This document shows, piece after piece, positions 54,359 through 60,098 of a stretch of DNA of 64,000 nt. The notes under the pieces were generated by a model. It was not told where the DNA came from. It searched no databases and saw nothing but the letters and a program-made list of their open reading frames with translations. Source of the DNA: Candidatus Bathyarchaeia archaeon (GTDB lineage: Archaea; Thermoproteota; Bathyarchaeia; Bathyarchaeales; Bathyarchaeaceae); contig DATETJ010000008.1 of NCBI GenBank assembly GCA_035283685.1, positions 64,629 through 128,628 of the forward strand, in the 5' to 3' direction. Numbering within the stretch: the stretch's first letter is position 1; each line of letters starts with the position of its first letter. The translations under genes and the position numbers were made by a program.

Positions 54359-54530
54359 GCGGGTCGAGGTTGAAATCCACTCAAGCCCAATTATCATTGG
54401 GTCGAGAGGGCAAAGCTCCAGCAACGTGGCGGCGCAGCATCCTATATTGTAGGCCGTCTTCTCCTTTCTCTCTCTCGATGAGGCGCAGTCACGCTGTTGA
54501 GCCAACACACAATGAAGCCCGCAAAACCAT
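54359..54530 (-). repeat. copy (b) of structured intergenic repeat element, sense-oriented upstream of the giant gene
   Basis: The minus strand shares ordered blocks with copy c: GGTTTTGCGGG, TTCATTGTGTGTTG, TCATCGAGAGAGAGAAAGGAGA, CTTTGCC and GATTTCAACCTCGACCCGC. The termini GCGGG and CCCGC can pair. An internal hairpin CCCAAT-GATA-ATTGGG is present. Confidence 0.6.
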
Positions 54531-54810
54531 CGCAAGCTCCAAGCACAATAAGAAAGCGAGTGGCCCGCCAGAGGTGCTACCGATGATGGATCCTGGGCTG
54601 CAGCTGAATTAGAGGCGCTCTGCAACAACCAACCAAATGTAAGTTGGAGTCAAGAGTGAGTTCTTTCGCAGCTTTATCGTGGCGAAATCAATTCTACAGG
54701 ACAGTCAGCCATGACCTGAAGCTGCCAGAGATGGAGGAGATCCGAATCCTGAGTTTAGAGGCCAGGACGCTGAGAAGTCTTCGAAAGAAGCTCGTGTCAG
54801 AAAGATTCGA

Positions 54811-55545
54811 TTAGAGCTTCAGTTCTCGGGCTGATTTCTCGCTTTGTTCTTCATTTAGCGTGCGACGAAGGATGTCGGCGTTGTACAGCCACATTAAGGA
54901 TGATACAGCAGTCCTGCCGTTGCGCCCAAGAGCTGTGGCTTCATAATTGATCATCGCCTTCTGAGAGGAGAATATGGTGTCGACCAGTTTGTTCAAGGAA
55001 ACGGATTCACAGGGCGCTGTGGCATCAAGCAAAGCTAAGTATTCGCCCATTGCTTTGTTCGCTCCTGTTTTCACAGCTTCGGCTCTGCCCAGATGGGACA
55101 TGTGTTTGATAACCTGAGCGCGAATGTTAGGCTGTTCCTTGTGTATGGAGCCCATGGCTGTCCAAGCTGACTCGTAGGTTTTGTCTGTGCTGCCGTCATC
55201 AACAATTATGATTTCGCTTGGACCGCGGTAGTTTGAGGCGCAGTTGAACAGACCTTTGATGAAACTAGCTATGTTCTGCTCTTGGTTGTAAACTGGGGCA
55301 ATCAGAGAAACCATTGGAAAGACGTGGCTTGCTTCAGTTATGATCTCATGTTTTTCGACTTTTGGGCTGACGAGTTCATCAAGCCACAATGCTCCGAATA
55401 GAGTGTTCAATACAACTGCTATGACGATGACTGCAAAGGCTGACCAATCAAGAAACAGGATTTTGCTGGCCATTAGGAGCAGGGCTAGGATTCCAAGAAG
55501 TGTGAAGGATAGGTGGAACAGGGTCATTAGTTTTGGGAAATTCAA
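54811..55545 (-). CDS. family 2 glycosyltransferase with N-terminal TM segments
   Basis: VSLIAPVYNQEQNIASFI...EIIIVDDGSTDKT is the GT2 signature. Two N-terminal hydrophobic helices are present. Confidence 0.75.
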   Translation of the reverse strand: MNFPKLMTLFHLSFTLLGILALLLMASKILFLDWSAFAVIVIAVVLNTLFGALWLDELVSPKVEKHEIITEASHVFPMVSLIAPVYNQEQNIASFIKGLFNCASNYRGPSEIIIVDDGSTDKTYESAWTAMGSIHKEQPNIRAQVIKHMSHLGRAEAVKTGANKAMGEYLALLDATAPCESVSLNKLVDTIFSSQKAMINYEATALGRNGRTAVSSLMWLYNADILRRTLNEEQSEKSARELKL

Positions 55546-55674
55546 GGGTCAGGTCGTCTTCTCTACTAAAACCAGAAGGCCAGCGACTTAAATGGGTTCT
55601 TGGTATTTCAGCAATATTCTAGTAACAAGAATATCTGAGCAAAAATAGAAGGAGATGAGTTGTGGATTGAGTTG

Positions 55675-58348: not shown

Positions 58349-58432
58349 GATTACCCAACTGTGAACGGTTCATTATTAGCTACGAGATCAAGATAAAAAG
58401 AAAATGGGGTTTTGGGAGGGGCGAATTACTCC

Positions 58433-59905
58433 TTAACCTGTGGTCCCGACGCCGACCATGTTGACCGGTGTCTTGCGTCTCCACTTCGCAATGTACAGTA
58501 GGACTGCGGCTGCTGAAACCACAATGATCAATGCGAGCATGAATGGTGCTGCGAACAATGGTGGCACGTATGCGCCAATTACGACAGGTAGAGCTTCGCT
58601 GCCCGATGGAGCCTGCACAGTGTACTTGGGAGTAGTGTCCACATCAGTTGTGTCGACGCCTATGCTTGGGTCGTGTTCCAGTGTGCCGTTGCCAAAGTAC
58701 GGGTAAGCCATGAACAAGCGCATGTGGGCGCCGCCTGCAATGTAGGCTGCTTTAACGGGCACCATGTTGACGTCGCCTTGGTTAGGATAGTCAGTGATTT
58801 TGGCTGACGAGACAAACCTGAAGAATCCGCCGAGTGTGCCAGTTTCGTTGGCAAAACGGATTTTTATCATTCGTCTTGGAACGTCAATGGGCTTCTCATC
58901 TTCAATCTCTGTTTTGTTTTCTCTTATGTCTTCAAAGGAGTCATCATCTTCGATTTCCATGTGTGTTGCCGTCGAGTGTTCTTCAATCTCTTCTGGACGT
59001 TCTTCTGCCTCGTCGACAGTTAGTCTTGTGATGTTTATTGAGGCTAAATTGACCCATAAGGCTAGTCTGGATTTGCCCTCTGGAATTCTGATGTCAAATC
59101 CTTCTTGGTTCAGTCCTGACACGAGTTCTCTCAGAGCATCTATGTTCCATTCCCATTTGTTGACAACTAGGTCCATCTTCATTTCGCCGGCGTTCACGGT
59201 GTACTTGAAGTCTGTGCCTGGCACTGTTTCCTCGACAGTTTCATTGTAGAAGCGTACTCGTATCATTATGTTGTCTTCAGCGAACTCGAAGCGTGGCAGC
59301 CACACTTCGTCCAAAGTGAACGTGAAGGCCACGCCGATTGCTTTGCCTTCAGGTGTAGTAATATTGTGAATGTCGCTGAGTGCCCATTTTCCCGCGTCAA
59401 AGGGCAAGTATGGTTTGTGCCACTGGCTTTCCATGCGTTCCATGAACTGAAGCATCATCTGCTTTAGGATCATTAGTCTGAGCATGCCCATGTCGCCCAA
59501 ACGTCCCCACCGATCTTCCTCAGGTTTGAAGTACCAGTCTTGGAATCTTTCGCGCCAAGTTTCCTGCCAAGCTTCTCTTAGGTGATTGTATGTTTCAGGG
59601 TTTCTGGGCAGAAGCGTGTGGTTGAAAGCGAACCATTCTATTAGACCTTGGAATTTAACCACGTACACTTGGTCTGGTTTGCTAGTGTACCACCATATGA
59701 ACATTGGTTTTCTTCCGCCAGCGGGAAACAGCACTGTAATAATGTCTGAGTCCAGTCGGTACCAATTGCCCGGGATGACTCTGACATCATCGTCGTCACC
59801 GTTGTCTTCGCTTGCTGAAGTGGACAAAGCAATCAAAGGTGAAGCCAAAAAGACCATAAGTATTGACAGAACGATAGCCGCAAGCCAATTTTTCTTCATT
59901 TTCAA
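58433..59905 (-). CDS. hypothetical secreted protein with acidic insert and C-terminal TM anchor
   Basis: The signal peptide is MKMKKNWLAAIVLSILMVFLASPLIALS. An E/D-rich segment and N-x-S/T sequons are present. The C-terminal TM is FMLALIIVVSAAAVLLYIAKWRRK. Confidence 0.6.
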   Translation of the reverse strand: MKMKKNWLAAIVLSILMVFLASPLIALSTSASEDNGDDDDVRVIPGNWYRLDSDIITVLFPAGGRKPMFIWWYTSKPDQVYVVKFQGLIEWFAFNHTLLPRNPETYNHLREAWQETWRERFQDWYFKPEEDRWGRLGDMGMLRLMILKQMMLQFMERMESQWHKPYLPFDAGKWALSDIHNITTPEGKAIGVAFTFTLDEVWLPRFEFAEDNIMIRVRFYNETVEETVPGTDFKYTVNAGEMKMDLVVNKWEWNIDALRELVSGLNQEGFDIRIPEGKSRLALWVNLASINITRLTVDEAEERPEEIEEHSTATHMEIEDDDSFEDIRENKTEIEDEKPIDVPRRMIKIRFANETGTLGGFFRFVSSAKITDYPNQGDVNMVPVKAAYIAGGAHMRLFMAYPYFGNGTLEHDPSIGVDTTDVDTTPKYTVQAPSGSEALPVVIGAYVPPLFAAPFMLALIIVVSAAAVLLYIAKWRRKTPVNMVGVGTTG

Positions 59906-59940
59906 TTCTTTTCACCTCTTTTATGCCTTGAAAACACGCC

Positions 59941-60098
59941 TGCGGGGTTTTGGTTCATTGTTTGTTGACTGGCACATGCAACCGAGAGTCATCGGGAGAG
60001 AGAAAGGAGAGATCTTTAAGGGCGTGTAAAAGGCTGAGAAACGCAGCTGCATTTGCCAAAGTCTCCTTGGTTTAAGGAGATTTTCAACCTCCCCGCAT
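59941..60098 (+). repeat. copy (c) of structured intergenic repeat element
   Basis: CTGCGGGGTTTTGG...TTCATTGTTTGTTG...TCATCGGGAGAGAGAAAGGAGA...CATTTGCC...GATTTTCAACCTCCCCGCA. TGCGGGG (59942-48) pairs with CCCCGCA (60092-98). A TATA-like CTTTTATG lies ~20 nt upstream. Confidence 0.6.

Follow-up and report, generated by a model that had tools for sequence, protein, structure and literature searches.

A previously undescribed structured RNA family with a conserved C/U-rich loop in uncultured Bathyarchaeia

Copies of the element and its relatives

The Bathyarchaeia are an abundant, uncultured sediment lineage; to our knowledge, very few structured regulatory RNAs are known in Archaea and none in Bathyarchaeia. 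The stretch of DNA analysed here, 64 kb of contig DATETJ010000008.1 from a Bathyarchaeia archaeon, is referred to as the window (W), and loci on contigs of relatives carry L numbers (L003, L056, etc.). The window contains a block of genes for a 490-amino-acid (aa) protein, a winged helix-turn-helix (wHTH) protein, an Ig protein and a GT2 protein, and an intergenic element that lies at either end of this block (copies b and c), with a shorter copy (a) and a weaker candidate (d) elsewhere. The element, which a first-pass annotation had described as a repeat family with copies a, b and c, is a previously undescribed structured RNA family of uncultured Bathyarchaeia. The features of b and c are as follows, P1 to P5 being helices of the predicted structure.

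54301..54312, plus strand: promoter-like box of b, AAGGTTTTTATG, resembling a B recognition element (BRE)/TATA box, 24 nt upstream of P1; this function is suggested by archaeal promoter geometry
54339..54535, plus strand: b-type long-form RNA core, with the 5' strand of P1, UUGCGAUG, at 54339–54346 and the 3' strand, CAUCGCAA, at 54528–54535; it holds P2, P3, a side hairpin, P4 and P5
54447..54483, plus strand: near-invariant block of b, UUGUAGGCCGUCUUCUCCUUUCUCUCUCUCGAUGAGG, with the family core CUCCUUUCUCUCUC at 54461–54474; predicted to be mostly unpaired, in an apical loop
54556..54570, plus strand: box GCGAGUGGCCCGCCA, conserved, in the spacer that separates the RNA core from the small open reading frame (ORF); missing in L154
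54656..54814, plus strand: conserved unannotated 52-aa ORF with a GTG start, downstream of b and tail-to-tail with GT2, the stop codons overlapping
59938..60111, minus strand: c-type long-form RNA, 5' leader of the 490-aa/wHTH/Ig/GT2 operon, with its C/U core at 60009–59996
60143..60152, minus strand: promoter-like box of c, AAGGTATTTT; the same box precedes the L071 orthologue, and L181 has only a diverged TAGGAGTTCTC

The 14-mer GAGAGAGAAAGGAG occurs exactly three times in the window, at a, b and c, and five times if up to two mismatches are allowed, a number reached in none of 100 shuffles. Copies b and c were aligned by blastn over 79 nt at 72% identity (E 7e-6). A covariance model, R1, was built from 20 b-type relatives with copy c excluded, and the window was searched with it with filters disabled. 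This search returned b (54360–54521, plus strand, 189 bits) and c (60097–59949, minus strand, 38.9 bits, E 1.7e-7) and nothing else of significance, the next match having an E-value of 0.7. The structure in R1, an automatic RNAalifold result, pairs the C/U tract with GGGUCGAGAGGGC and differs from the structure described below, and R1 was used as a search tool only. Chance similarity is ruled out by the shuffles, the b/c alignment and the recovery of c, and the ordered blocks that the first-pass annotation had listed as common to b and c are indeed present in both. Its estimate of about 160–170 nt per unit was too short: the cores span 54339–54535 in b (nhmmer E 5.5e-64) and 60111–59938 in c, and each is preceded by a promoter-like box about 25–35 nt upstream.

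Rfam 15 gave no match in the whole window at the gathering threshold. Searches of the b, a/d and c regions at a permissive E-value gave two weak matches to bacterial small RNA (sRNA) models (E 0.94 and 1.3), both in the flank outside the RNA core, in agreement with the earlier remark that the element was not recognized as a known RNA family. A tRNA or tmRNA identity was rejected, as no such gene was found in the window. Literature searches turned up no paper with the motif and nothing relevant on structured RNAs of Bathyarchaeia.

Relatives were collected by scanning for the pattern ATCG-N(1-4)-GAGAGAGAAAGGAG and clustering the loci by similarity outside the motif. The metagenome scan returned at least 118 loci. 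Among the matches listed, 34 sequences from outside the window group with b and c; smaller clusters unite a with L085, L142 and L155, and L003 with L129, and the rest are unrelated coding sequences. The family comprises at least about 40 Bathyarchaeia contigs from metagenomes or metagenome-assembled genomes (MAGs). When one genome per species was scanned, about 60 matches were obtained, roughly the chance expectation, and the sole organism matched twice was a Bathyarchaeia MAG (L003 and L056). The family appears restricted to one Bathyarchaeia lineage, with the exact motif in only one species-representative genome. A virus association was rejected, as IMG/VR yielded two chance matches only.

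Because the motif scan selects for the motif by design, a second sampling was made through the contigs of four GT2 homologues (43–54% protein identity), in which the motif was not used. All four distinct loci carry a b-type RNA beside GT2, and the 30-nt block UUGUAGGCCGUCUUCUCCUUUCUCUCUCUC is 100% intact in each, though GT2 identity falls to 43%. The CGAUGA that follows this block is variable (CAGAUA in L182). Most columns of UUGUAGGCCGUCUUCUCCUUUCUCUCUCUCGAUGAGG are invariant in alignments A2 (16 b-type sequences) and A4, nearly all being at least 90% conserved. Synteny with the window extends to L056, where positions 1052–2778 correspond to window 45272–47003 and positions 2883–7351 to window 54286–58740; the b RNA of L056 is 86% identical and the flanking genes 67–74%.

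One further contig, L001 (Logan contig SRR3990170_343630), represents window 54451–60469 in an independent assembly. This contig stops 10 nt short of the C/U tract of b, possibly because assembly broke off close to the repeated sequence.

Strand, fold and gene context

The RNAalifold consensus of A2 contains 48 base pairs, distributed over the following elements.

P1: UUGCGAUG/CAUCGCAA
P2: GUGGGU/ACCCAC, equivalent to the G-run/C-run stem of the first-pass annotation
P3: GUUG/CAAC
Side hairpin: loop of variable length
P4: GCUCC/GGAGC
P5: long arm, the apical loop of which is the C/U-rich block

In this structure 97.7% of paired cells can pair, and the value is 38–48% when partners are slid by 1–3 columns. 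Double-sided changes were found in five pairs, and one pair of P2 occurs as UA, AU, CG and GC, so the proposed closing stem is real. The covariation score was reached in 0 of 500 shuffles.

In the 48-pair structure, G·U cells number 66 and A·C cells only 6. When the complementary strand is read, 89.8% of cells pair and the alifold energy is −26.9 kcal/mol, compared with −45.0 kcal/mol on the C/U strand. Because of this asymmetry, the energies and the TATA-like box on the same strand, the RNA is assigned to the C/U-rich strand, which is the plus strand of the window for b and the minus strand for a and c. Folded singly, the purine-strand sequences do not outperform their shuffles (z −0.28 and −1.23), and on the basis of these folds, the G·U/A·C counts and the energies an RNA on that strand was rejected. 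The strand calls of the first-pass annotation, with b on minus and a and c on plus, are accordingly reversed; its short copy a is a genuine relative, with orthologues in L085, L142 and L155, on the other strand from that proposed. Copies b and c, which had been described as pointing outward from the four-gene block, both point into it in RNA orientation. This convergent arrangement, in which the 490-aa/wHTH/Ig/GT2 block is flanked on either side by an inward-pointing RNA, is conserved in L181, L182 and L149.

A purely DNA-level element, such as a regulator site, an insulator or a GA/CT triplex tract with no function as RNA, would account for a homopurine/homopyrimidine 14-mer near promoters, and wHTH regulators are encoded in the cluster. 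The excess of G·U over A·C and the compensatory changes would be unexpected for a DNA site, and about 200 nt are conserved in a helix-respecting pattern, which makes this explanation highly improbable.

In every copy a covarying G+C-rich helix closes a loop that displays CUCCUUUCUCUC. The closing helices differ in sequence among paralogues with complementarity retained (GUGGGU/ACCCAC, GCGGGG/CCCCGC, UUGGGGGUU/AACCCCCAA, GGCUUGAAGGA/UCCUUCAAGCC and GGCUUGGAGG/CCUCCAAGCC). The C/U tract is mostly unpaired in the alifold consensus, and its mean unpaired probability ranges from 0.4 to 0.98 across ten paralogues, so that a single-stranded state is predicted.

On the RNA strand, conserved boxes of the AAGGT(A/T)TTTT type stand upstream at a constant distance; the box before a and its orthologues, CTCTAAATG, is a different one. 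All b-type copies have an (A/T)AAGGTTTTTATG box with minor variants only, followed by an A/T-rich stretch and P1. Archaeal promoters have a TATA box centred near −26. From this geometry and the position of the TATA-like boxes we infer that the RNA 5' ends lie at or just before the closing helix. That the family consists of structured RNAs transcribed from the C/U strand is very probable. The box of c, AAGGTATTTT, also occurs at 7354 and 7971, within coding genes, and these occurrences are unrelated.

A coding explanation of b was considered for the ORFs at 54292–54612 (plus) and 54347–54628 (minus) and rejected. Column entropies at codon positions 1–3 of the b RNA are 0.47, 0.39 and 0.34, giving no codon periodicity and no excess at position 3; indels upstream of P2 have lengths not divisible by three, and the frames are lost in c and a. 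The sequence CAAUGAA contains a conserved AUG that could open a small ORF. Only in L154 and L123 does this ORF share the frame of the 52-aa protein, a ribosome-binding site is not conserved before it, and it was treated as a coincidence of RNA constraint.

The 52-aa ORF lies downstream of the b RNA on the same strand in every b-type orthologue. Its translation is conserved in 14 sampled loci, start codons were aligned in 21, and the consensus is roughly MSSFAALSWRNQLYRKIS..LKLPE.EEI..LKLKAE.LRSLRKKLL.E.FD. The corresponding entropies of 0.75, 0.61 and 1.19 show clear third-position variation. Searches of Pfam, NCBIfam and a protein database gave no match and retrieved no homologue. The spacer between RNA and ORF (54536–54655, plus strand, and its orthologues) ranges from about 20 to 125 nt and contains boxes GGCGAGUGGCCCACCA and UGUGCGGAGGAGC, which are conserved and in some lineages deleted.

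On the other side of b lies a giant gene (47194–54141, minus strand) for a 2315-aa surface protein, and the first-pass annotation had placed b in sense orientation within the 670-nt region upstream of it. The b RNA is antisense to this gene. The gene is absent at the syntenic site in L056, L181 and L182, where M50-peptidase/168-aa genes directly adjoin a retained b RNA, and a 2318-aa gene occupies the same site in L185. A role of b as leader of the giant gene was rejected on both grounds. The giant surface-protein gene is an insertion or deletion polymorphism, and its apparent upstream region is an RNA gene and a 52-aa protein gene on the other strand, convergent with GT2.

The end of copy c and the start of the 490-aa gene (59905) are 33 nt apart, with a U4 tract and a GAGGUGA ribosome-binding site in between. 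A U4–U5 tract after the closing helix is conserved in W, L071 and L181, and in L071 and L181 the c orthologue also lies upstream of a homologue of the 490-aa gene. L182 and L149 carry a short form at this position, with helix GGCUUGGAGG/CCUCCAAGCC around the C/U tract. In L185, a close relative that has the giant gene, c is absent and the operon is kept. A direct repeat flanks c in the window, at 60141–60123 and 59916–59898 (minus strand; GGTGAAAAACCCTGAAAAC and GGTGAAAAGAATTGAAAAT). L185 has a single copy of this GGTGAAAA... repeat, no RNA and a start codon directly after the promoter, a pattern that suggests loss or gain of the c leader by recombination between flanking repeats.

The features of a and d are as follows.

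38174..38246, minus strand: a-type short-form RNA; closing helix UUGGGGGUU/AACCCCCAA encloses the C/U core at 38207–38194, with a kink-turn (K-turn)-like GAU bulge and tandem GA beside the helix
38268..38276, minus strand: promoter-like box of a, CTCTAAATG; box and flanking sequence are conserved in L142 and L155
38988..39046, plus strand: candidate fourth copy d (weaker), helix GCGGAG/CUCCGC enclosing CUUCCUUCUCUCUCC, 24 nt after a 38-aa ORF (38848–38964)

Copy a folds with a z-score of −2.7, its C/U tract being 70% unpaired. It lies downstream of the isoleucyl-tRNA synthetase (IleRS) gene in W, L142 and L155, with upstream synteny and promoter region kept, and it is followed by a C_GCAxxG gene in W, a 396-aa ORF in L155 (the downstream sequence being the same in L142) and a 336-aa ORF in the more diverged L085. 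With a U5 tract directly after the helix in L142 and L155, copy a looks like a stand-alone small RNA. A U5 tract that would define a 3' end follows the helix only in L142, L155 and L181, and in no b-type member. On inspection at the sequence level, all four a-type sequences fit the K-turn consensus, with a GGGGGUU/(A/G)ACCCCC C-stem, a GAU or GAC bulge and GA on both strands; UUGAUGA follows the helix, and AUGA or UCGA precedes it on the 3' side. For d, the stem covaries in L142 and L155 (GCGCAGAG/CUUCUGCGC), and the C/U tract itself is variable.

The 38-aa ORF before d (plus strand) has its own TATA-like box at 38800–38813 and a GGUGGUGA ribosome-binding site, and a perfectly conserved, operator-like palindrome, TCACAACTTGTGA, lies upstream at 38745–38757. 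The ORF, box, ribosome-binding site and palindrome are all kept in L142 and L155.

The positions of the copies bear on two alternatives. If the elements were riboswitches or attenuators, leaders that act purely in cis, a ligand or factor sensed by the fold would govern read-through or translation of the next gene, the 52-aa ORF for b and the operon for c. This fits the constant position of the b RNA before a same-strand ORF, with no U-tract between and a spacer of only about 20 nt after P1 in L154, as well as the proximity of c to the 490-aa gene, the terminator- or attenuator-like U4–U5 tract and a multi-helix fold with many invariant junction nucleotides. Cis sequestration by the tract is unsupported: in the minimum free energy folds of 20 b-type orthologues, the C/U block never pairs with the start region of the small ORF or its ribosome-binding site. 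A same-strand 5' untranslated region (UTR) location, found for b and c, does not extend to the other members, since the gene after a is not conserved and d is preceded by an ORF; no common function unites the downstream genes, and the operon of L185 runs on the same promoter with no RNA. Leaders of this kind are thus an unlikely explanation for the family.

Alternatively, the similarity could derive from transposition of mobile repeats, the hairpin being a terminal inverted repeat of the miniature inverted-repeat transposable element (MITE) type. Several copies in 64 kb, in both orientations, could be read in this way, as could the repeats on both sides of c in the window against the one left in L185. 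The copies are nevertheless as diverged as the b/c alignment indicates, and no terminal inverted repeats are shared, the closing helices differing in a, b, c, L003 and L182. Each paralogue occupies a syntenic position in relatives whose proteins are only 43–60% identical, the strand-asymmetric G·U pairing indicates selection on RNA, and, besides the IMG/VR result, no transposase lies nearby. Mobility as the source of the family is therefore barely credible. Among the classes offered by the first-pass annotation, an sRNA or leader fits these data, and a MITE or insulator is unsupported given the divergence, the orthologous sites, the lack of shared inverted termini and the strand-specific G·U pairs.

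The C/U tract and its possible partners

Several ORF starts in the window are preceded by ribosome-binding-site-like sequences of the GGAG, GAGG or GGUGA type, and because of these the tract resembles an anti-Shine-Dalgarno sequence. In the mechanism proposed here, the elements would be genes for clade-specific small structured RNAs of uncultured Bathyarchaeia, read from the C/U strand. The TATA-like box of each unit would set the RNA 5' end just before the G+C-rich closing helix, and this helix, with up to five more in the long forms, would hold CUCCUUUCUCUCUC in a loop predicted to be mostly single-stranded. Long forms would lie at mRNA 5' ends, b before the 52-aa ORF and c before the 490-aa/wHTH/Ig/GT2 operon, and the short a would stand alone. 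The exposed tract would provide a seed for pairing with purine-rich, GGAG-type mRNA segments, and the RNAs would be riboregulators with divided roles, b acting on the GT2 message, c as a leader and a in trans. For b, the putative target would be the first 10–12 nt of the neighbouring convergent GT2 mRNA, GGAGAAGACG(GC) pairing with GCCGUCUUCUCC. We hold tentatively to this reading, in which purine-rich stretches of mRNAs would pair with the exposed tract as their platform. The analyses above establish the homology, conservation, strand, fold and gene context of the elements; transcription start sites, the single-stranded tract and its pairing with a target are predictions. The candidate site is the following.

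55555..55564, minus strand: predicted GT2 mRNA 5' end, AGAGAAGACG in the window and GGAGAAGACG(GC) in relatives; complementary to the b loop CGUCUUCUCC

When 9-mers complementary to the loop were sought in 289 kb of related DNA, GGAGAAGACG(GC) was the sole recurrent non-coding complement. The GGAGAAGACG sequence is kept at the predicted GT2 5' end in more than 12 lineages, about 22 nt after a conserved TTTAAG box and 19 nt before the GT2 start.

GT2 has an apparent internal promoter within the operon (window about 55555–55640, minus strand), with conserved ATATTGCTGA...CCATTTAAGCC and a short 5' UTR that begins with GGAGAAGACG.

Several observations weigh against the pairing platform. The predicted GT2 duplex is unexceptional: its energy of about −21 kcal/mol, against a background of −13.4 ± 4.9 kcal/mol, is equalled by about 9% of other ORF-start windows, and the same 10-mer also occurs within the IleRS coding sequence. 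The GT2 site pairs with a b-specific flank rather than the family core, and because of this it cannot explain the presence of CUCCUUUCUCUC in all paralogues; the GT2 duplex is thus a lead and not a result. A conserved complement of the 12–14-nt core was not found in the 289 kb of related DNA, the elements themselves excepted. The tract in b could also pair internally, over 9 bp, with the invariant UCGAGAGGG: this junction of the b-type RNAs is complementary to CUCUCUCGA, RNAalifold on a trimmed alignment prefers pairing between this region and the tract, and covariation cannot decide the matter because both partners are nearly invariant. The c leader is dispensable in L185, and transcription, RNA ends and processing are all inferred. 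Finally, 30 invariant nt exceed a typical sRNA seed, and a protein or large ribonucleoprotein (RNP) partner fits at least as well.

Such a partner is the main rival explanation. The RNAs would then be protein-binding, as RNP scaffolds or decoys whose C/U loop is recognized by a clade-specific protein (KH-type, Sm-like or the 52-aa protein), and they would tag transcripts or titrate the protein; a-type RNAs would additionally bind L7Ae through the K-turn. The complete identity of 30 nt in b-type RNAs, set against GT2 proteins at 43%, would be more readily accounted for, as would the core with no conserved complementary RNA site and the recurrence of one loop motif in 5' leader, stand-alone and possibly, for d, 3' UTR positions. 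The b RNA is always linked to a conserved ORF for a small, basic, helical protein, and the K-turn consensus fits every a-type sequence. On the other hand, no candidate protein was found, the 52-aa ORF matches no known family, and the forms b, c, L003 and L182 lack a K-turn signature. We consider protein binding possible, with the balance of evidence leaving it rather doubtful.

A bolder reading is that the b-type RNA is no ordinary sRNA and could serve a conserved cellular machine of this clade, as its RNA subunit or its regulator. Its invariant, C/U-rich platform of 30–37 nt would dock on a partner of equal invariance, candidates being the small ribosomal subunit, a factor at the 16S 3' end (the platform mimicking an anti-Shine-Dalgarno sequence) or RNA polymerase, and the shorter paralogues would be satellites plugging single transcripts in. 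If true, the RNA would in principle be what 6S or CsrB-type global regulators are in bacteria, although we regard this as improbable.

The family comes with a structure that can be tested, a strand that is defined, promoters, paralogues of several types and a loop of striking invariance. It is linked both to an unannotated 52-aa protein and to a conserved surface-protein/glycosyltransferase cluster, and it corrects the gene map by placing an RNA gene and a small protein gene, on the other strand, in the region upstream of the giant gene. The alignment is ready for a new RNA-family entry, and the GT2 site provides a concrete target hypothesis.

Comparison with known systems

Short intergenic hairpin repeats such as REP/BIME, Correia/NEMIS and archaeal MITEs resemble the element in lying at gene ends in both orientations, and they may carry promoters. 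The Bathyarchaeia copies differ in being few and diverged, in occupying orthologous positions across deep relatives, and in having helices that covary in place of shared inverted termini.

Riboswitch and attenuator leaders are similar to b and c, which are promoter-proximal in the 5' UTR and have multiple helices with invariant junctions, c also having a U-tract after its closing helix. In contrast to such leaders, the downstream genes have no common function, stand-alone copies occur, no alternative pairing of a ribosome-binding site is predicted and no ligand is indicated.

The a-type RNAs, at about 73 nt, are similar to box C/D and K-turn RNAs, with a terminal helix whose 5' strand leads into UGAUGA and whose 3' strand is directly preceded by GA, as in K-turn geometry. 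Their box D is AUGA or UCGA and not CUGA, C' and D' boxes are absent, the 12 nt before the 3' GA differ among orthologues, and b, c and the other short forms lack the signature. The tract lies a variable distance of about 1–7 nt from the 3' GA box (AUGA/UCGA), and for this reason it is not a methylation guide under the N+5 rule. With neither C'/D' boxes nor a conserved 10–12-nt guide 5' of box D, a box C/D sRNA identity was rejected.

Bacteria possess multi-copy sRNAs with pyrimidine-rich, anti-Shine-Dalgarno-like loops, among them the 'cuckoo' RNAs CcsR/alpha-r14 (CCUCCUCCC loops) and RsaE/RoxS (C-rich loops). The Bathyarchaeia RNAs are archaeal and have no sequence or covariance-model similarity to these in Rfam searches; their long forms are about 200 nt, with multiple helices and a 30-nt invariant block, some are 5' leaders, and the pairing target is a candidate only. 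The two groups are alike in stem-loops that expose a C/U-rich tract, in several paralogues per genome, in a member linked to a very small ORF and in the expected pairing with purine-rich ribosome-binding regions. By analogy of function, the family most resembles these bacterial multi-copy sRNAs with C/U-rich loops.

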